IMG/VR virus record: IMGVR_UViG_3300012361_000002 | Reading direction: 5' to 3' (one strand) | Origin: an uncultured virus (IMG/VR IMGVR_UViG_3300012361_000002) | Lineage: Duplodnaviria > Heunggongvirae > Uroviricota > Caudoviricetes | DNA length: 35,237 nt | Part shown: positions 896-29,392 of the stretch, one piece after another | How the letters are laid out: each line of letters begins with the position of its first letter | Position numbering within the stretch: position 1 is the first letter of the stretch | Translations under genes and position numbers: made by a program | The notes under the pieces: model-generated | Told to the model about the DNA's origin: nothing | Seen by the model: only the letters and a program-made list of their open reading frames with translations | Databases searched by the model: none

Positions 896-2407
896 CTACT
901 CCGCTGCTTGCAGATGCCTCACGGCATTCTGCTTCGATTTCGCGAACGCAATATTGCGCGAACGAATCCACTGCGCAACCTCGAACGAGACCTCCGTCGG
1001 GACTTTCTGCATGTAGTTCGGCCATACACCGAACTTCTCACGAAACATGTGCGCCGCGCGGCCGTCCTGGCTGCCTTTCTCGCGGCAGTATTGTAGCAGC
1101 TGCGAGTAGAACAGTTGCTTTTCTGCTGGCGTATATTGCCGGCTCAGCGCCTGCCCCGTCTTCTGCATCGCGCCAGGGACGTACTCGACCAGCACGCCAT
1201 TGCGCTCGACCACGCCTGACGCCAGCGGGAGCATGTGGCCGCACTCGGTGCATGTCCGATTGAGCCGCGGGACGATCGCCTGGCACTCGGTGCACGCCCG
1301 CGGCAGCGGCTTCTTGCGCTTGGCGTCCTTCGCCTTGCCGTTCGGTTTGCCGTCGTCCAACCGATCATAATGAATATCGGTTACCAAACCGAGTTCCATC
1401 GTTGAGTTACTGTGATCCAGAATTATTGCGCAATCCTTGTTCGTCGCTGTGCGAAGACATCTGCCAATAATTTGGGTATATAGGATGGGACTCTTCGTCG
1501 GCCGCCCAAGAACCAAACACCTCACGTCCCAATCTACCCCACAAGTGAGAGTCCCGATATTTACAACCACGTCGATCTGGCCGTTGTGGAACCCGCGCTT
1601 GATCTCCTGGCGTTCCGCCGACGGCGTCTCGCCATCTTGGTACGCCGACGACACGCCCGCTTCCTGGAACCGGTAGTGGACCGTCTCGGCGTGCTTCCTA
1701 TCGACGCAGAACACGAGTGTGTTCGGCTTCCCCCACATGCGCTTCCATGTGTCGATGATGTCCGCCGTCAGCGTCCCGCCGCACATGGCGTCCGAGAGTT
1801 GATCCTTGACGTACTCGCCGGCGACGACCTTCACCTCGGACAAGTCCGGCTGCCCGGTGCAAAATACCTTGAACTTCGACAGGAGACCCTTGTCGATGAG
1901 TTCCTGCGTCGTCGCGATGATAAGCAAGGACTGGAAATACTTCCCTAGCCCCTTGGACCACGGCGTCGCCGACAGACCAATGAACGGGACGTTCTGCCAC
2001 GCAGCATCTGCCAGCCATTGCTTGTGGAAGTCGTGCAGCGAGTGCACCTCGTCGAAGATCACCGTCTTCGCCTCGGGATACGCGCTGCGGCTTTTCAGAG
2101 TTTGTATGCTGCAAATTTGGACGGGTTTTGCCCAATCAGTCATCGAGTGGTTCGCCTGGATCACCCCGATGTCCCTGATCCCCTCGGCGTAGAACGCCTC
2201 CACCGTCTGATCGATGAGACCGATCGCGTTCACTACGAACGCCAGCCTGTTACCCTTGCGAATCGCCCCATCCACGATCGCCGCCGCCATCCGCGTCTTG
2301 CCTGCCCCCGTCGGTGCCTGCATCACGACCCGCCTCACACCCTGCTGGATCGTCGCGCGCAGGTCGTCCAAACCTTGCTGCTGGTGTTCCCAAAGCGATT
2401 TGTTCAT
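896..2407 (-). CDS. SF2 DExH helicase with C-terminal Zn finger (RadD/YejH-like)
   Basis: Walker A APTGAGKT, DEVH, motif III LSATP, motif VI QIIGRCLR, and CTEC...CTEC. Confidence 0.93.
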   Translation of the reverse strand: MNKSLWEHQQQGLDDLRATIQQGVRRVVMQAPTGAGKTRMAAAIVDGAIRKGNRLAFVVNAIGLIDQTVEAFYAEGIRDIGVIQANHSMTDWAKPVQICSIQTLKSRSAYPEAKTVIFDEVHSLHDFHKQWLADAAWQNVPFIGLSATPWSKGLGKYFQSLLIIATTQELIDKGLLSKFKVFCTGQPDLSEVKVVAGEYVKDQLSDAMCGGTLTADIIDTWKRMWGKPNTLVFCVDRKHAETVHYRFQEAGVSSAYQDGETPSAERQEIKRGFHNGQIDVVVNIGTLTCGVDWDVRCLVLGRPTKSPILYTQIIGRCLRTATNKDCAIILDHSNSTMELGLVTDIHYDRLDDGKPNGKAKDAKRKKPLPRACTECQAIVPRLNRTCTECGHMLPLASGVVERNGVLVEYVPGAMQKTGQALSRQYTPAEKQLFYSQLLQYCREKGSQDGRAAHMFREKFGVWPNYMQKVPTEVSFEVAQWIRSRNIAFAKSKQNAVRHLQAAE

Positions 2408-2416
2408 GTTGCGCCC

Positions 2417-2632
2417 TCACCGATTTGCAACCGTTGGTCCAAAACCGGTGTCGCGCGCGTGTCGCGCGTATACGTTCCCCCCTAGTTTGTTTAAGAAAGA
2501 TTGCTCTCCAGTACAAAGTTTTCCTTCTCTTCCTGCCTTCCTCTCTTGTTTCCCTTCTTGGAGAGGCAAAACAACAAATGAAGGAAGCAAGATGGGGTTA
2601 CCTGCGCGCGCGAGGGCAAATGTCTGGAACAT
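2417..2632 (-). CDS. Hypothetical small protein or replication-region remnant
   Basis: GAGGAG 8 nt before ATG at 2632; purine-skewed tract and CGCGCG runs. Confidence 0.35.
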   Translation of the reverse strand: MFQTFALARAGNPILLPSFVVLPLQEGKQERKAGREGKLCTGEQSFLNKLGGNVYARHARDTGFGPTVANR

Positions 2633-2733
2633 GGGCACGTCTCCTCGTTCCCAGGGAACTTGTCCCGGGTGGTTGTGGTGGTATCAATGTGGTTCACACC
2701 TCGCCGTGGCCTTTGGCGAGGTTCGACGTTACT

Positions 2734-3084
2734 TCAGGCAGCGAGCTTCTTTTGGGATTTAGACTTAGCGAAGTGCTCAGCCAGTTTTGCCAGAGCTTGA
2801 TCCTGATCAGACTTCGTTACCTTGCCGCACGGCTCTCCGGACAGGTCGACGCGATCGACGTCTTCGACAAGGCAGCGTCGGTATCTGATTGTCTTGGTAT
2901 ATCGGTAGAGGGTACGGTTGATCTTCTCTTTGCTGAGGAGCGGTAATTGTTCTTTGAGATCGACGTGGATGCCGATCTTGAGGGGTTTTGGATTAGCCTT
3001 CCAAGCAAAAAATGCCTTTGGAAATACGGCTATCAATACCGGAAGCATCTCTCCGGGGATGTTTCGTTTGGGACTAGGCGACAT
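2734..3084 (-). CDS. ProQ/FinO-domain RNA chaperone
   Basis: FPKAF...PKPLKIGIHVDL...LYRYTKTIRY...RVDLSGEPCGKVT matches the ProQ/FinO signature (PLKIGI, Y, RxDLxG). Confidence 0.92.
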   Translation of the reverse strand: MSPSPKRNIPGEMLPVLIAVFPKAFFAWKANPKPLKIGIHVDLKEQLPLLSKEKINRTLYRYTKTIRYRRCLVEDVDRVDLSGEPCGKVTKSDQDQALAKLAEHFAKSKSQKKLAA

Positions 3085-3089
3085 GGAAA

Positions 3090-3111
3090 CCCCTCATTCT
3101 TGGTCGAGGGG
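3090..3111 (-). promoter_or_regulatory. Hairpin sequestering the ProQ/FinO Shine-Dalgarno
   Basis: mRNA reads CCCCTC-GACCAAGAAT-GAGGGG-TTTCC-ATG; the SD is paired in a 6-bp stem. Confidence 0.6.
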
Positions 3112-3112
3112 A

Positions 3113-3141
3113 TTGACGAGACGAGATATTTTACATATTTC
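3113..3141 (+). promoter_or_regulatory. Sigma70-type promoter of the antisense sRNA
   Basis: TTGACG-17 nt-TATTTC immediately before a two-hairpin, U-tract unit. Confidence 0.55.
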
Positions 3142-3146
3142 ATCTC

Positions 3147-3225
3147 TTGGATGCGTAGCCGACCAAAGCACTTCGCATCCGAACCCGGCGGTTGAGGCTA
3201 CGGCCTCCTGCCGGGGTTTCTTTTT
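3147..3225 (+). ncRNA. ~80-nt two-stem-loop sRNA antisense to the proQ-operon leader
   Basis: Stem TTGGATGCG/CGCATCCGA with a loop containing CGACCAA, then a C(UACG)G-capped hairpin and TTTCTTTTT. Confidence 0.65.
3182..3225 (+). terminator. Intrinsic terminator
   Basis: CCCGGCGG-TT-GAGGC-TACG-GCCTC-CTGCCGGG followed by a T run. Confidence 0.75.
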
Positions 3226-3495
3226 GTAATCCCGCCGTCATGTGTTCGTCAACCAGCATTGTGCTGTTGATAACTATGTGAATACGCAACGTCTCGTATA
3301 GTGTGCCAGCGCTAACGCTAGGGATTGATTCCGCGGGTCGACATCCTTGTCCGGCAATGAGTACACTCCGCTTTTGCGGAAGCGCGACAAGGAACCGGAG
3401 GATGTCTTTCTGGGAACTATCGAGCCCCGCGGTGCCCGACAGGGAATACACCTTGCCGCACCGATGGGAGCATAGCGCCATGGTATCGCGTTGAG

Positions 3496-3536
3496 GTCAA
3501 CACCGGTTGACGCCACGAATCATCTGGGCATAAGGT
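3496..3536. promoter_or_regulatory. Back-to-back -35 elements (palindrome) with a rightward promoter
   Basis: GTCAAC-ACCG-GTTGAC palindrome; TTGACG(3507)-18 nt-TAAGGT on the + strand. Confidence 0.5.
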
Positions 3537-3541
3537 CACTT

Positions 3542-3678
3542 GCTCCGCGGCAGCTACAACAGCCTTTGACGATTTGGGAGTCGGAGGAAGCTATGTGCTG
3601 GAGACGGTCATTCCCAAAGGCCAACCCTCCAGATTACCTTCCCACGCTGGGCTGGCGACCAAGGGCTAGCTGCGGAGC
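3542..3678 (+). ncRNA. ~140-nt structured RNA with closed ends and complementary loops
   Basis: Stems GCTCCGC/GCGGAGC, AGCTA/TAGCT, GCCTTT/AAGGGC, GGAAG/CTTCC and CTGGAG/CTCCAG; loops TTTGGGA and TCCCAAA are complementary. Confidence 0.6.
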
Positions 3679-3693
3679 GCTTCTCCACCACTG

Positions 3694-3723
3694 TTGACGC
3701 CGCGTCCCGCGCGGGATTAGCGT
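3694..3723 (+). promoter_or_regulatory. Putative sigma70 promoter
   Basis: TTGACG-18 nt-TAGCGT upstream of the hairpin/tRNA-like cluster. Confidence 0.4.
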
Positions 3724-3869
3724 TCCACATGGTTCGTGGTGCGCCTTGCTGAGTCACCATCTGCGGTGCCAGGGTCGGGTCCATCGCCCCCCTATCCCTC
3801 CGGCCCTGGCGTCGTCAGCTATTAATTCTGCCGTGTGCTTGGACGTGGAAATCTAGTACTCGGCAGATC

Positions 3870-3917
3870 GACGGCGGCAGGCTGGGTAGGTCGCAAGACT
3901 TGCAGCCTGCCGCCGTT
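3870..3917 (+). other. Long GC-rich hairpin with GCAA tetraloop
   Basis: ACGGCGGCAGGCTG/CAGCCTGCCGCCGT perfect 14-bp stem capped by GTC-GCAA-GAC. Confidence 0.6.
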
Positions 3918-3923
3918 AGCTAC

Positions 3924-4018
3924 GATCCCGTGGCGGAACGGTAGACGCGGCAGGATAGGTCTGCCGGCATCGGAACCACTCTCACGATGCCGTGGAGGTT
4001 CGAATCCTCCCGGGACCT
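3924..4018 (+). tRNA. Degenerate tRNA-Leu(TAG)-like RNA (pseudo-tRNA)
   Basis: Acceptor GATCCCG/CGGGACC, Leu-type D arm TGGCGGAACGGTAGACGC, T arm GGAGG-TTCGAAT-CCTCC and long variable arm. The anticodon loop is shortened and no CCA is encoded. Confidence 0.65.
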
Positions 4019-4045
4019 CTTAACAATGCAGGAGACATCAACAAC

Positions 4046-4705
4046 ATGGCAAAAGCGGCAACGAAGAAGAACAAATCCGGCAAGGTCGACGGCCGGTCGA
4101 AGGCGGCGCGAGCCGCGAAGGCAAAGACTGGCAGTGGCGGCAACGGCCGCGATCTGCATCTGTCAGATAACGGCGGGAATCAGGAGGCGATCCAGGCCAG
4201 CTTCCTGCAGCACCGCAACCTATGGAACAACGCCATCGCCAAGCTGAAGGTGGCCGAGAAGGCGCTGAAGGAGGTTGTAGCCGACGCCAAGGCCGAAGGA
4301 TTCTTGAAGCTACACTTCCAGATCGCCGACGCGCTGACGGCTGGTCCCAAGAAGGAGGCCAAGGTCGTCGGCGAGGTGAAGAACCGTCTTCAGGTGGCCC
4401 GCTGGATCGGCCACGCGATGGGCAAGCGGATCGACCTCAACCAGCTCGACCTGTTCGCTCCGGACAAGCCGGCCGGCGACCCGGTCCAGGCTGCCTACGA
4501 GGACGGCGAGAGGGCCGGCCTGGGAGGCGTTACGGCGAACGTGCCTGGACAGTATTCAGCCAACGAACTCTCACAGGCGTGGCTCTCAGGCCACCACAAG
4601 GGGCAGTCCACGCTCCATAAGGGCATCAAGCCGCTGGAGGAGAAGACGGACAGCGTCGTCGGGCCTGCCGCCGGCTGGGGTGCGTCGAAGGCGACAACGG
4701 CATGA
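4046..4705 (+). CDS. Basic protein with GapR/DUF2312-like middle and Rmf-like C-terminal segment
   Basis: AGGAG upstream; Lys-rich N-terminus; LKEVVADAKAEGF; AYEDGERAG...QAWLSGHHKG. Confidence 0.6.
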   Translation: MAKAATKKNKSGKVDGRSKAARAAKAKTGSGGNGRDLHLSDNGGNQEAIQASFLQHRNLWNNAIAKLKVAEKALKEVVADAKAEGFLKLHFQIADALTAGPKKEAKVVGEVKNRLQVARWIGHAMGKRIDLNQLDLFAPDKPAGDPVQAAYEDGERAGLGGVTANVPGQYSANELSQAWLSGHHKGQSTLHKGIKPLEEKTDSVVGPAAGWGASKATTA

Positions 4706-4890
4706 CCACACTCCAAGAAGCTGAAGCCAAGCTGAAGGCTGCGCGCGCGGCTCTCCCGCAATGGGATGATCTTCCGACGGCCCCAGCTGTCATGGAGCGT
4801 CTCATAGACGCAAAGATCGACGTGGCACTGGCCCCGATCATCAAACGGCTGGAAGAATTATCCGGCGACGTATGGAAGCGCGGAACATGA
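4702..4890 (+). CDS. Hypothetical protein
   Basis: 62 aa, ATGA-coupled at both ends. Confidence 0.75.
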   Translation: MTTLQEAEAKLKAARAALPQWDDLPTAPAVMERLIDAKIDVALAPIIKRLEELSGDVWKRGT

Positions 4891-5426
4891 GCCCGCTCGT
4901 CGTCGGCCTCGACATAGCGACGGACTGCGGCGTCGCCTATGGGCATCCCAGCGACTACCCAAAATGCCAGAGCTGGGACCTGCGCAAGGGCGGCAAGGGT
5001 CGTCCGCGCCGGCTGGCGGCGTTGTGGGACTACCTGCACGACTTCTGCAACGTCCATAGCCCCGACATGCTCTTCTACGAGGCCGGGATGGGCCTTCAGA
5101 CGGCGCTGGGCATAGGCACCAGCGAGGAGACATTCGCCTTCCTGCGGGGCGCTATCGGCGTCGTGGAGGCATGCGCCATCAAAGCCAGAATACCCTACAT
5201 CAAGTCGATCGGCGTGCAGGATGCCAGGAAGCACCTGCTGGGCGCCGGGAGGCTTCCGAAGGGCGAGGGCAAGAAGCTGGTGTTCGACCGCTGCCGCGCC
5301 CTGCGCTGGCCAGTGACGAACGAGGACGAGTCGGACGCCGCGGCAATCTGGTCGCTCGGCTGCGGGGAGGCCAACCCGCTGTCCAGCGCGATGGTAACGC
5401 CGCTGTTCTCGGGAGCGCCGCAGTGA
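4887..5426 (+). CDS. RuvC-like Holliday junction resolvase
   Basis: VVGLDIATDCGVA, FYE and NEDESDAAAI acidic motifs of the RNase H fold. Confidence 0.82.
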   Translation: MSPLVVGLDIATDCGVAYGHPSDYPKCQSWDLRKGGKGRPRRLAALWDYLHDFCNVHSPDMLFYEAGMGLQTALGIGTSEETFAFLRGAIGVVEACAIKARIPYIKSIGVQDARKHLLGAGRLPKGEGKKLVFDRCRALRWPVTNEDESDAAAIWSLGCGEANPLSSAMVTPLFSGAPQ

Positions 5427-17888: not shown

Positions 17889-18617
17889 TCAGAAGTGATA
17901 GCTCAGCCGCACTATGGTCGCGCTGATATTGTGTTTGATATCGGCACCGACCGGGATGGGACCGGTGCATTCGTTGCCGCTACAGACAACGCCTGTCGTT
18001 CCCGTGTGAACATCGCCAAGGAAATAATGACGATACTCAACTCCGAGACCCCAGTTACGGCTGAGGGCGTATTCCAGGCCGGCGCCAACGACAGCGCCGT
18101 TGAGCGTCGGCTTTGTCGAGAATTGCGAGCCGTCGGTCCCCGTCACGATGAACTCAGACCCGGACCAACCCCAGCCGGCCGTTCCGTAGGCCATGAGGTT
18201 GGGAGCAAGGATGAAGCCGAACCGGCCGCGGATCGAAGCCAGCCATCGGCTTTTGCTGTTGATGTTGCCGATGAAGCCGGGGTTCTTGACGTCTCCGTCC
18301 ATCGTCGCGATGTCACCGTCGCCCTCAATGCCGACGTAGAAGTTGCCGCCAAAGTGGGTGCCGATGCCGGCATGCAAGCCACCGATGGCTCCGAACGGCG
18401 CCGTGTTGAAGTCCATGCTACCGAACGGGTCGGATGCGGTTCCCGAGCCGCGGTCCCAACCGACGCCACCATGCCCACCGACATAGAAGCCGTTGAAATA
18501 ATCGTAGACTTCAACAGCCGCCGGTGCCTTGTACTGGGGCGGCGGCACCCTTAGATCGGCCGCATAAACGCTGGTGGAGCAGAGCAGCGCGGCGGTTGCG
18601 ATGATGAGCTTCTTCAT
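17889..18617 (-). CDS. Outer-membrane beta-barrel protein (Omp25/RopB-like)
   Basis: Signal peptide then AADL..P..KAP, FNGFYVGGHGG, SIRGRFG, GAGLEY and C-terminal YHF; GAGGA RBS. Confidence 0.9.
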   Translation of the reverse strand: MKKLIIATAALLCSTSVYAADLRVPPPQYKAPAAVEVYDYFNGFYVGGHGGVGWDRGSGTASDPFGSMDFNTAPFGAIGGLHAGIGTHFGGNFYVGIEGDGDIATMDGDVKNPGFIGNINSKSRWLASIRGRFGFILAPNLMAYGTAGWGWSGSEFIVTGTDGSQFSTKPTLNGAVVGAGLEYALSRNWGLGVEYRHYFLGDVHTGTTGVVCSGNECTGPIPVGADIKHNISATIVRLSYHF

Positions 18618-18663
18618 GGGTTGTCCTTCCTCTGAAGCGGTGTGGTTTGCAGGGCACCCTACA

Positions 18664-19281
18664 CTAGGCCGCTTGCTGGGCATGTGTCTCCGCAGCAACA
18701 GTCAATGACTTTTCCGTGGTGACGAACCCGGATGCCAACTCTGGAGACATGGTGGCCAGCTTCTTGGCGATCGCCACCGTGCCGAGTTGATGATCAAATG
18801 TCCCGCGGCTCCAGACTCCGTCAGCGATGTACTTGCCGCCCCGGTAGATGCTCGTCCCAGCCCATAGGTAGCCGCTGGGGCGTCCGTGGTGAAGCCTGGG
18901 TCCGAAACCGTTCCATAGTTCCCAATAGTAGCAGGCGCGCTCCCAGGTCCATACGGGGCATGCCGTGATGTGGTCGAGCTTCAACGAATCGATGACGCCG
19001 TCCTCCCACGTTGAGAACGGACCGCGCCCCTTGGGCACGTGGGTTGTCGGGTGCGAGAGTGGGTCACCATTGCCGAAGTAAGCGTCGAAGGATGGTCCCT
19101 CTCGTTCGAAGACAGGCATCAACCACAAAGCCGGGACGCCGCACCCTGCCTGGACCTTCTTGAAACGGCCGACGCTCGCCAACAGTACCCTCGCTACGCT
19201 GGAAAGTTCGGCGTCATGCGCGGTGGTCTTCATGGTGGCTAGGTCATTGGTGTAGTCGGCCTCGAGTTGGTCGAACGTCAT
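18664..19281 (-). CDS. Endolysin, lysozyme-like (COG5526-type)
   Basis: GVP...FERE, GNGDPL, VPKGRGPF, E.WNGFG, SGYLWAGT, GKYIADG and D.QLG motifs. Confidence 0.85.
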   Translation of the reverse strand: MTFDQLEADYTNDLATMKTTAHDAELSSVARVLLASVGRFKKVQAGCGVPALWLMPVFEREGPSFDAYFGNGDPLSHPTTHVPKGRGPFSTWEDGVIDSLKLDHITACPVWTWERACYYWELWNGFGPRLHHGRPSGYLWAGTSIYRGGKYIADGVWSRGTFDHQLGTVAIAKKLATMSPELASGFVTTEKSLTVAAETHAQQAA

Positions 19282-28141: not shown

Positions 28142-28610
28142 AGAACTTCACCTCCCTTGCCATCGCGAGGTGCGCCTGGTCTCCGCGCACCTCGTAGATG
28201 ATCTTGGCCCCCATGTCCCCGTGGATGATCCACGGCCACCCTACGGCCTGTTCGAAGTCCTTGACGTGCTCTGGCCAGTCGTGGGCGTTGACGATCCCGC
28301 CGTGCGAGAAATCCCTCGCGATGTGGAACATCGCGATGTCACCGGGCCGTACCCGGTCACGATCCACCTCGTGGGCGTACTTCCTGATGTGCTGAAGGTA
28401 CTGCCCAGACGCGCGATGCAGATGGGCGTTCGACGAGTAGACAGATATCGGTACCTCTGGGACAAGGCCAGCCTCCTCGTAGACCTTCGCGAAGAACGTG
28501 CAGTCGGCGGCGACGCCCTTGATGCGGGCTCCGTGGCGGTACGGCGTACCGATCCAGCTATGTGCGATGGTGACGACGCGTTGACGCTGGGCAAGTTCGG
28601 TGGTGTTCAT
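28128..28610 (-). CDS. NlpC/P60 tail-associated peptidase
   Basis: WIGTPYRH...ADC, PGDIAMF, SHGGI and IIH motifs. Confidence 0.9.
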   Translation of the reverse strand: MNTTELAQRQRVVTIAHSWIGTPYRHGARIKGVAADCTFFAKVYEEAGLVPEVPISVYSSNAHLHRASGQYLQHIRKYAHEVDRDRVRPGDIAMFHIARDFSHGGIVNAHDWPEHVKDFEQAVGWPWIIHGDMGAKIIYEVRGDQAHLAMAREVKFFSLW

Positions 28611-29392
28611 CTCGCCGCAGCAATCTTTTCTGCGCGTCGGCTCACGAAAGCAGCCTTCGCCTCTGGCGTTAGCGATGCCCACCAGTTCTTGACTTGGGAC
28701 GAAAGCCTGGATTGAGCGCCCGGCTTAGCTGCGGCGGCACGCGCGGCCTGACTAGAAATCTCGGAGCGTCGTTCCTGTGACAAGTTGCGCTCGCGCGCCT
28801 TGGCGATCTTTTTGCCTATCGCTGATCGTTCTTCTGGAGACCGTTGAGCCCATGCATCGTTATTGCGTGCTGTTGCCATCTTCGAGCGTTGATCATGCGG
28901 AATGGCATCCCACATAATTCGGATACCTTCATAAAGTTTTTCATCTTCCTGGGCAGTTCGTTTCCGACCTGGCTTGAATTGTGTTTTGGCCGCTGCTTCA
29001 CGTCCCTCTGGGGTCCAATCATGCGGTTTGCCACGTGTTACCGCACCGATGCGCTCACCCCATCCGTCTGGTTTCTTTTTCCCTTTCTTGATCATGGACC
29101 AATGTTCACGAGAGGCTTGCGTCTGAACCCATCGTCCACCGAAAGTGTCCGTCAATTTGTTCGATAAAGCAGGATTGATGCGGCGATAAAGCTTGATCCA
29201 CTTTGATTCGGCATCGTTGCGACTGACACCTACCCCAGTTTCCAAAACTTGCACTTGCGGTTTGTATCCCAGAACCTTCTTATGTTCTTTCAGCCGACGT
29301 TTAAGGTCATTCGTCGAGCCGACGTAAATCGGAATGGCGGATTGGTTGAACAGAAGATAGATCAGCCATTTGTGGTTTATCAGCTTTGTCAT
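28607..29392 (-). CDS. GIY-YIG homing endonuclease
   Basis: LIYLL...IYVGST..LKRRLKEH...E..WI, followed by a basic repeat-like tail. Confidence 0.85.
   Translation of the reverse strand: MTKLINHKWLIYLLFNQSAIPIYVGSTNDLKRRLKEHKKVLGYKPQVQVLETGVGVSRNDAESKWIKLYRRINPALSNKLTDTFGGRWVQTQASREHWSMIKKGKKKPDGWGERIGAVTRGKPHDWTPEGREAAAKTQFKPGRKRTAQEDEKLYEGIRIMWDAIPHDQRSKMATARNNDAWAQRSPEERSAIGKKIAKARERNLSQERRSEISSQAARAAAAKPGAQSRLSSQVKNWWASLTPEAKAAFVSRRAEKIAAAR

Follow-up and report, generated by a model that had tools for sequence, protein, structure and literature searches.

The stretch of DNA analysed here (the window) is the 35,237-nucleotide (nt) record IMG/VR IMGVR_UViG_3300012361_000002 from an uncultured virus, a tailed phage (siphophage) from soil metagenomes. 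In the window, a gap at 3085–4045 separates a leftward operon (proQ, 2734..3084; a helicase gene, 896..2407; and more) from a rightward operon (4046..4705, then a RuvC-like gene, 4872..5426, and more). A non-coding, mosaic early control region is the best explanation of this interval. Its left part carries a candidate small RNA (sRNA) of about 80 nt, named sRNA1 (about 3147–3225, + strand), next to proQ, which encodes a putative RNA chaperone of the FinO/ProQ family on the − strand. A conserved block occupies 3316–3545, and the right part contains a second hairpin unit, two further hairpins and a tRNA-like element.

Coding potential and promoter-like sites of the interval

Three distinct versions of the region were compared: the window, an IMG/VR contig (L001) that stops about 1 kb upstream of proQ, and a second IMG/VR contig (L169), which was located via the first protein of the rightward operon. 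Two further contigs (L002 and L003) were 100% identical to the window over 2401 nt. A relative found by its helicase (L172, 75% identity) had no control-region DNA, proQ or tRNA in common with the window. BLASTN of 2700–4800 against phage GenBank records and of 3085–4045 against plasmids gave no match, and a metagenome scan returned nothing beyond the identical copies and the L001 contig. A search with 3820–4045 of one Mesorhizobium genome and of the two relatives' records found nothing. The sequencing runs matching the region comprised eight DNA runs, and no RNA run was listed.

Seventeen open reading frames (ORFs) of at least 30 amino acids (aa) lie in or overlap 3085–4045. Sixteen of them contained frame-breaking indels or stops in every relative covering them, and the remaining one, of 36 aa, overlaps the proQ start in another frame. 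No Pfam match was obtained for the five largest ORFs. The proQ gene, used as a control, was intact, and the original prediction that the interval has no convincing protein gene was confirmed. Hidden small protein genes are extremely improbable. The ORFs reach 113 aa, and as read from the sequence an ATG at 3593 with GGAGGA 5 nt upstream opens a 34-aa ORF, but the region of this ORF is unconserved and its frames differ among the relatives. We rejected the small-protein reading on the broken ORFs. Conservation lay outside coding sequence (CDS). The segments 3085–3145 and 3146–3228 were 93.4% and 91.6% identical to L001 versus 83.8% for the proQ CDS, and 3689–3823 was 95.6% identical to L169 versus 86.9% for the adjacent gene 4046–4705. 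The conserved non-coding stretches therefore surpass the neighbouring CDS in identity.

The hexamer TTGACG occurs in the interval at 3113, 3507 and 3694 on the + strand, as the original prediction had it, and additionally at 3566 (+) and 3252..3247 (−). These are 5 of the 40 copies in the window, within 961 of 35,237 bases (2.7%). Shuffled windows held 24.4 ± 5.3 copies and none of 100 reached 40. TTGACG matches the −35 consensus TTGaCgS given for Caulobacter RpoD, the housekeeping sigma factor, in a passage of PMC8144410. Four of the sites (3113+, 3252−, 3507+ and 3694+) have a common layout, TTGACG-N15/16-(C/G)AT(A/T)(A/T). This pattern, TTGACG-N15/16-SATWW, had four matches in the window, all within 3113–3719, against 0.21 expected, and none in 163 unrelated loci, the pattern being a post hoc one derived from the sites that it finds.

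The four sites are referred to as P1, P5, P3 and P4. P1 (3113..3141, +; TTGACG-N15-CATAT) is the putative promoter of sRNA1. Its −35 hexamer is identical in L001, and L169 has its own TTGACG 37 nt before the first hairpin of sRNA1, compared with 34 nt in the window. P5 (3226..3252, −; TTGACG at 3252..3247, N15, GATTAC at 3231..3226) points leftward. Its TTGACG is kept in both L001 and L169 and its GATTAC in L169. P3 (TTGACG at 3507–3512, −10-like CATAAG at 3529–3534, +) is intact in L001 and destroyed in L169. P4 (3694..3722, +; TTGACGC-N14-GATTA) is identical in L169 and absent from L001.

A candidate sRNA next to a FinO/ProQ-domain gene

The proQ gene (2734..3084, −) encodes a 116-aa minimal FinO/ProQ-domain protein. 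The product matched Pfam PF04352 with 88 bits (cut-off 27; E 5.1e-25) over profile positions 7–108 of 109. Using phmmer against solved structures, matches were found to the N-terminal domain of E. coli ProQ (5nb9, E 6e-11), Lpp1663 (6s10), RocC (7rgs, E about 1e-7) and NMB1681 (3mw6, E 1.4e-3). A gene for a putative phage-encoded RNA chaperone thus does adjoin the interval, as had been proposed. In the alignment of homologues, the conserved Tyr and Arg columns Y68 and R78 correspond to residues that we take to be important in E. coli ProQ. The protein of L001 is 88% identical and a further homologue (P0003) 73% identical, and the CDS shows no indel and no stop relative to L001. The N-terminal PKRNIPGE is kept in both homologues and GAGGGG lies 5 nt before the ATG at 3084, which supports the 116-aa reading. 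In the proQ leader a hairpin, CCCCUC-N10-GAGGGG (3091..3112, −), sequesters the Shine-Dalgarno (SD) sequence GAGGGG (3096..3091). The stem is unchanged in L001, with a single change in the loop, and the leader 3225..3085 (−) folds with z −5.53. Twelve nt past the proQ stop, within the same cassette, there is a stem-loop at 2700..2722 (−) with a 7-bp stem and no U tract. One of its U-A pairs is C-G in L001, a double-sided change, and the stem-loop is absent from L169.

On the opposite strand, sRNA1 is predicted to consist of two hairpins and a tail. Hairpin 1 (3147–3182) has 9 bp and a variable 18-nt loop. The terminator hairpin (3184–3215) is bipartite and GC-rich, with an A3183/G3216 mismatch below its closing C-G pair. 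It is followed by the tail UUUCUUUUU (3217–3225), which is invariant in the three phages. The fold has −40.6 kcal/mol (z −4.92) and none of 200 shuffles was as stable. The same architecture was found in L001 (z −4.96) and L169 (z −4.09). Seven of the ten differences between the window and L001 are unpaired, and the three that fall in stems each leave a G-U pair in place on the + strand. In a symmetric test on the 24 pairs of the minimum free energy (MFE) fold, the + strand kept all three changed pairs, and the − strand kept two and broke three. In L169 the 5′ half has diverged and hairpin 1 has a different sequence with the common core UGGAUG/CAUCCA. Manual reading gave two double-sided pair-keeping changes there: in hairpin 1 the outer pair U-A is replaced by C-G, and in the terminator an inner C-G pair by G-U. 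With the window and L001 as input, a covariance model (R1) recovered the L169 copy with 37.6 bits (E 5e-9). Of the proposed units sRNA1 has the strongest support, and we regard it as probably a genuine sRNA gene.

No further copy of sRNA1 was found with the covariance model in 87 sources (465,503 bases), among them 80 proQ loci of bacteria and 2 of viruses. A search by the structure of hairpin 1 gave 80 viral loci and was discarded, because BLAST left all but the known contig as chance matches. Rfam gave no family over the whole window at gathering thresholds. In E-value mode over 2400–4300, only the tRNA model and chance-level matches (E about 1 or more) appeared, and no sRNA1 family. The interval is thus not explained by known families, the tRNA model being what the permissive mode adds.

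The features of sRNA1 were compared with those reported for ligands of FinO-domain proteins. A portion of PMC7367173 describes the FinO domain of ProQ as requiring a terminator hairpin followed by at least four U. According to an account in PMC12001967, the FinO ligands FinP and RepX carry an A-G mismatch directly under the closing G-C pair, and ProQ ligands have an A-U extension or pyrimidine mismatches at the same place. Like FinP, sRNA1 has stem-loops and an intrinsic terminator with at least four U. In both proQ-bearing phages (the window and L001), A3183/G3216 stands at the place of the FinO-ligand mismatch. L169, the phage without proQ, lacks two G here, and its terminator stem continues directly into A-U and G-U pairing with the U tract. 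The A-G mismatch thus appears to track the presence of proQ, which is striking, in a sample of three sequences.

P5 is placed so that its GATTAC abuts the sRNA1 tail. The predicted leftward start lies about 7 nt on, near 3218, inside the complement of the U tract, so that the leader would be complementary at its 5′ end to all of sRNA1. After the sRNA1 complement the predicted leader contains a hairpin and then the stem-loop that sequesters the proQ SD. Three observations argue that leftward transcription crosses sRNA1. In L001 (597–797) a 207-nt insertion at about window 3320 encodes an acidic 66-aa protein with a good ribosome-binding site (RBS), upstream of sRNA1 and on the proQ strand; in neither the window nor L169 is the sRNA1 hairpin followed by a U tract on the − strand; and conservation with L001 stops right past the leftward TTGACG, at 3255. 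No homologue of the 66-aa protein was found in the window by tblastn. Imperfect direct repeats of about 18 nt border the 207-nt insertion. Next to P5, a spacer (3256..3315) exists as two alleles, the window being almost identical to L169 and L001 being unrelated (31% identity).

L169 aligns to the window on both sides of proQ, with 91.7% identity over 2414–2686 and again from 3185 onward. In place of window positions about 2687–3184 (the hairpin 3′ of proQ, proQ, the SD hairpin, P1 and hairpin 1) it has about 130 nt with its own P1 and hairpin 1. As L169 thus has sRNA1 without proQ, the chaperone gene is an exchangeable cassette and no necessary part of a module. The proposal of a chaperone-plus-sRNA module is partly supported: the two genes lie side by side in the window and are conserved together in L001, and L169 has the sRNA only. 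As judged from these alignments, sRNA1 would be independent of a neighbouring proQ, and in L169 it would be directly antisense to the leader of the helicase operon. What the three phages would have in common is antisense control of the leftward replication operon, with the FinO-domain gene inserted first in two of them.

The adjoining gap of 326 nt (2408–2733), from the start of the helicase gene to the proQ stop, also looks non-coding. The identity of 91.7% to L169 over 2414–2686 compares with only 82.5% for the helicase CDS, and about 45 nt immediately 5′ of the helicase RBS are invariant in the three phages. On the − strand this gap has a purine-rich tract with many GGA motifs, and of a 73-aa ORF (2417..2638, −) the ends are conserved in L001 and the middle is not.

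The central block and the right-hand part

The block 3316–3545 contains a long hairpin, two back-to-back −35-like hexamers and P3. It was 86.8% identical to L001, with four 1-nt indels and the 207-nt insertion, and about 80% identical to L169. The long hairpin (3335–3401) keeps its base and has a variable tip, which is deleted in L169. The two hexamers are GGTCAA at 3495–3500 (TTGACC on the − strand) and TTGACG at 3507–3512. Overlapping them, GTTGA/TCAAC occurs three times in alternating orientation at 3490–3511 (GTTGAggTCAACaccgGTTGA), possibly as an operator. The triple is conserved in L001 and partly in L169. The block folds with z −1.18 (+) and −2.87 (−). A conserved RNA fold was considered for it and rejected, the MFE pairs being kept on neither strand. 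With no conserved fold, the block looks like promoter or operator DNA with local hairpins and not like a discrete structured RNA. An 18-mer from the block was found in one unrelated contig (L175).

Downstream of P3, a 140-nt RNA had been proposed. The segment in question (3541..3690, +) is a variable leader closed by a helix of 3542–3556 with 3667–3679. The fold of 3538–3700 had z −0.80, and 44 of 200 shuffles folded as well. The sequence is unlike in each relative, with 51% identity to L001 and no BLAST match to L169. A structured RNA is unsupported here, as stability is at shuffle level and neither the sequence nor a small ORF is conserved. The idea of a folded unit behind each TTGACG thus held for the unit after 3113 (z −4.92) and did not for that after 3507 (z −0.80).

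P4 is followed by a second unit (about 3725–3830, +) with hairpins at 3725–3739 and 3760–3818. The latter is a 19-bp hairpin with a C-rich 19-nt loop. Its tail is the degenerate CUAUUAAUUCUG in the window and U8 in L169. In L169 the T8 after the hairpin is followed by AGGAAA-N5-ATG of an ORF of about 70 aa, and a hairpin with U8 before an RBS makes a putative terminator at the head of the rightward operon. A consensus terminator scan detected only the inner stem (3806–3818) in the window. As read from the sequence, the second unit may be an attenuator, a second sRNA (sRNA2) or both. A search with an sRNA2 30-mer found the L169 contig only.

Two more hairpins follow on the + strand at 3827–3867 and 3870–3917, the second with 14 + 7 bp and a GCAA tetraloop, and neither with a U tract. 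The segment 3824–3923 folded with z −7.65 (0 of 200 shuffles) and contains the inverted repeats I4 and I12. Next, ARAGORN reported tRNA-Thr(GGU) at 3924..4019 (+), with two mismatches in the anticodon stem, ending 10 nt before the RBS of gene 4046. Hairpins and a pseudo-tRNA behind 3694 had been predicted, and both were found. These elements occur in this phage only. At this place L169 (2282–2500) has the ORF of about 70 aa, which looks like the exchange of one module for another at the start of the rightward operon. The tRNA-like element has no counterpart in L001, L169 or L172, and its T-arm/acceptor 24-mer was found exactly only in a tRNA-Met of an unrelated phage tRNA cluster (L168).

That the tRNA-like element is a working tRNA, which would supplement host decoding or replace a host tRNA cut by a defence nuclease, we consider unlikely. 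On this explanation the anticodon would be UAG (Leu) or GGU (Thr) and the preceding hairpins would be part of the precursor. It is favoured by the ARAGORN call, by the RF00005 match at 3924–4018 (31.3 bits, above the gathering value of 29), by a canonical T arm and D loop and by the 24 nt identical to part of the L168 tRNA-Met. The six tRNAs of that cluster scored 33.5–67.3 bits on RF00005, so that one accepted phage tRNA is as low as 33.5. However, the match appeared in E-value mode with permissive filters only and was absent from the whole-window gathering output, and no relative has the element. The acceptor stem has an A2/C71 mismatch, the variable arm has 26 nt with a 12-nt loop, and CCA is not encoded. 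The anticodon stem called by ARAGORN has two mismatches in five pairs. The alternative perfect stem GGCAG/CUGCC, as read from the sequence, is shifted by one position, deletes position 26 and places A where U33 belongs. A regular 5-bp anticodon stem, a U33 loop and a fully paired acceptor stem are thus not found together in the element. Furthermore, the cloverleaf is not the MFE fold (z −1.44), and CUA makes up 25 of 528 Leu codons in 18 phage genes. Codon usage was otherwise uninformative on a need of the phage for this element.

Two sequence relations involve the tRNA-like element. CCUAUCC (3791–3797) in the loop of the 3760–3818 hairpin is a perfect 7-nt complement of GGAUAGG (3953–3959) in the anticodon-like loop (inverted repeat I19). 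In L169 the loop reads CCAAUCC and the tRNA-like element is absent, and the complementarity could be chance. The 5′ arm of the GCAA hairpin (3874–3887) and the anticodon arm of the tRNA-like element (3947–3960) form a 14-nt direct repeat with 86% identity (family D7).

The first rightward gene (4046..4705, +; ATG at 4046, RBS AGGAGA at 4030–4035) encodes a 219-aa protein of PHROG 26995, of unassigned function, that is 87% identical in L169. Elsewhere in the window, PHROG and Pfam named two helicases, a RuvC-like resolvase, an HNH endonuclease, a DNA methyltransferase, an exonuclease VIII/RecT pair, a DNA polymerase exonuclease subunit and a block of tail genes. An outer-membrane beta-barrel protein is encoded at 17889–18698 (−), between the replication and tail modules (Pfam OMP_b-brl, 2e-12; weak match to OmpA_membrane). 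A GIY-YIG domain protein (8.4e-8), probably a homing endonuclease, is encoded at 28607–29392 (−) among the tail genes. The host is probably an alphaproteobacterium, as hinted by the TTGACG(S) consensus, a DUF2460 tail protein and the nearest cellular ProQ homologues. The latter are 35–47% identical and include proteins of Mesorhizobium and also of Halomonas-type and Methylomonas genomes. FinO/ProQ proteins in alphaproteobacteria are said to be recent, mostly mobile arrivals.

Proposed regulation and its alternatives

We propose the following model of the left side. sRNA1 faces the leftward promoter-like site head-on, and leftward transcripts from there or from upstream would read through the sRNA1 gene. 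The leftward leader would then carry a perfect complement of sRNA1, by analogy with FinP/FinO/traJ and Inc/FopA/repZ. Pairing of the two RNAs may begin with a loop-loop contact and proceed to a duplex of about 70 bp. It would lower expression of the leftward operon via cleavage of the duplex, head-on transcriptional interference or both. The 116-aa FinO-domain protein would bind the sRNA1 terminator with its hairpin, U tail and A-G mismatch, stabilise the RNA and speed pairing. As the chaperone gene is the first gene of the operon that it would help repress, the arrangement would form a negative feedback. On the right side, transcription from P4 to the 3760–3818 hairpin would meet a terminator or attenuator where the rightward operon begins, possibly with release of a second sRNA. 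In the window the U tract of this unit seems to have decayed, and the two hairpins and the tRNA-like fold then precede the first RBS. These are most likely processing signals for RNase III and for RNase P/Z. For the full antisense-plus-chaperone model we see the chances as evenly balanced.

Several results weigh against this model, besides the post hoc promoter pattern and the fact that L169 lacks proQ with sRNA1, the leftward promoter-like site and the second unit all kept. A scan with an E. coli-type promoter model accepted none of the TTGACG sites, its sole call in 2300–4400 being 3338(+). The −10-like hexamer of P5 is CGTTAC in L001 and thus not kept there. The sRNA1 comparison covers three sequence versions. 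Hairpin 1 of L169 was mis-registered by MAFFT and Infernal, the pair changes there being those read by hand. For the window terminator MFE fold against L169, two changed pairs were kept and three broken by a deletion of 2 nt and a change in the base of the stem. sRNA1 lies 63 nt from the proQ ATG and cannot mask the RBS as FinP does. An opposite-strand terminator within 400 nt upstream of proQ was found at 20 of 81 distant loci compared with 279 of 1530 background windows, which is no enrichment, so that adjacency of the chaperone gene and an sRNA is not a family-wide rule. The second unit folded with z −2.2 to −2.4 only, and its strand test kept one pair and broke one on + and kept one and broke two on −.

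A different arrangement of the left side would have divergent promoters and no antisense overlap. A −10-like TAAAAT, read from the sequence at 3133..3128 (−), may place a promoter inside 3146–3119, from which proQ would have a short leader. sRNA1 and proQ would then be divergent transcripts with an AT-rich spacer in common, and sRNA1 would act in trans on host or distal phage targets, with or without the chaperone. The high conservation of 3085–3145, the best-conserved part relative to L001, and the presence of sRNA1 without proQ in L169 both fit this arrangement. However, TAAAAT has no acceptable −35 (ACGCAT) and the promoter scan gave no call there. Transcripts from upstream, e.g. with the L001 inserted gene, must still cross sRNA1. 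When the loops of sRNA1 and sRNA2 were scanned for duplexes with either strand of the window, no target stood out: the best non-self duplex had −28.3 kcal/mol, and the best of 10 shuffles −26.1. We consider this arrangement doubtful. Somewhat more doubtful is that the units are simply insulating terminators and the TTGACG sites ordinary early promoters, with no regulatory RNA, the FinO-domain protein acting on host RNAs or on phage mRNA 3′ ends generally. Terminators just past early promoters are common in phage early regions, the second unit of L169 ends in T8 right before an RBS as an attenuator would, and proQ has no general linkage to upstream opposite-strand terminators (20 of 81 versus a background of 18%). 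Nevertheless, all three phages have a promoter-like site and then, after about 35 nt, a conserved additional hairpin and a terminator with no intervening gene, which is the anatomy of an sRNA gene and not of an insulator. In addition, hairpin 1 varies in its loop and keeps its stem, and the A-G mismatch goes with the presence of proQ in the three sequences.

It is improbable that the block 3316–3545, possibly with more of the interval, acts as DNA, i.e. as a replication origin or an operator for a phage regulator. Its conservation in all three phages, the GTTGA/TCAAC triple over the −35-like hexamers and the nearby helicase and recombination genes point this way, as does the comparison of its right part with L169, in which 5 pairs are kept and 11 broken on the + strand, compared with 3 and 14 on the − strand. 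However, the block has no iterons and no AT-rich unwinding region (GC 0.54–0.59; a repeat search gave short two-copy families only), and a DNA element would account for the block only, leaving sRNA1 unexplained. The original prediction went further, to an RNA module in the place of or beside a repressor switch. No helix-turn-helix, repressor or integrase family was found among the translated ORFs scanned (sets of 12, 21 and 33). Replication and recombination genes of its own are present in the phage, which may simply be virulent; a virulent phage would not be expected to have a repressor switch. We consider it very improbable that the interval is an all-RNA early switch standing in for a protein repressor. 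Such a switch would join two parts. On the left, the FinO-domain chaperone and cis-antisense sRNA1 would act in negative feedback. On the right, kissing of CCUAUCC with GGAUAGG would set read-through of the sRNA2 terminator, much like a T-box but with both partners supplied by the phage.

Under the antisense-plus-chaperone model, the locus would offer a cheap test case. Its minimal FinO domain has 116 aa, the candidate ligand of 80 nt is encoded at a distance of 63 nt, and the candidate target is the leader of the replication operon. L169 provides a natural control, having the RNA without the chaperone and A-U pairs at the terminator base instead of the A-G mismatch. As summarised in one part of PMC9977716, FinO/ProQ-family genes on phages are known from sequence surveys only, and in the literature searched we found no phage-encoded member with an assigned RNA partner. 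If the model is true, antisense control of copy number and fertility in the style of plasmids would extend to the timing of phage replication genes, and the locus would illustrate gain or loss of a chaperone gene as a cassette within the very RNA gene that it serves.

Comparison with known systems

The tRNA-like element resembles RF00005 in its cloverleaf with acceptor, D, T and variable arms and a canonical T loop, and lies immediately 5′ of an RBS, so that cutting by RNase P/Z at this place would set the 5′ end of the mRNA. It differs from tRNAs in the marginal score, the defective anticodon arm, the acceptor mismatch and the oversized variable arm, and its processing is a prediction. Antisense immunity RNAs are known in phages, namely c4 of P1/P7, sar of P22 and OOP of lambda. 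Like sRNA1, these are small promoter-to-terminator RNAs in early control regions that oppose an early transcript. To our knowledge none of these systems has its own FinO-domain chaperone, and no Rfam family, c4 included, matched the locus at E up to 10. RocC/RocR of Legionella and the minimal ProQ NMB1681 of Neisseria have a minimal FinO domain of similar size and terminator-ended sRNAs as ligands. However, their RNAs act in trans on many targets, and none beyond shuffled controls was found in this window.

The closest known system is FinOP of F-like plasmids, which consists of FinP, FinO and the traJ leader. Both have a FinO-domain protein and a short RNA of two stem-loops with an intrinsic terminator, which lies opposite a 5′ leader, here a predicted one. 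Loops vary among alleles while stems are kept, and the A-G purine-purine mismatch lies under the closing G-C pair of the terminator, as described for FinO ligands in a section of PMC12001967. The element is here a phage and not a plasmid, and sequence similarity is absent (in 2400–4300 no Rfam family matched at E up to 10). FinP covers the RBS, whereas sRNA1 begins near 3147, 63 nt from the start codon, and the proQ SD (3096..3091) lies in its own cis hairpin. Furthermore, the leader that would be regulated belongs to the operon encoding the chaperone itself, and the chaperone gene is dispensable in a relative.

In FopA/Inc RNA/repZ of pCol1B9 and PcnR of IncI2, as outlined in part of PMC9977716, a FinO-domain protein of a mobile element and an antisense RNA or leader stem-loop hold down a replication gene. 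Gene order and host element differ from those here, and nothing in the phage locus visibly corresponds to the Inc mechanism, in which a pseudoknot required for translation is disrupted. Nevertheless, as with control of the repZ type, the genes downstream in the operon that would be controlled are those for replication, here the helicases.

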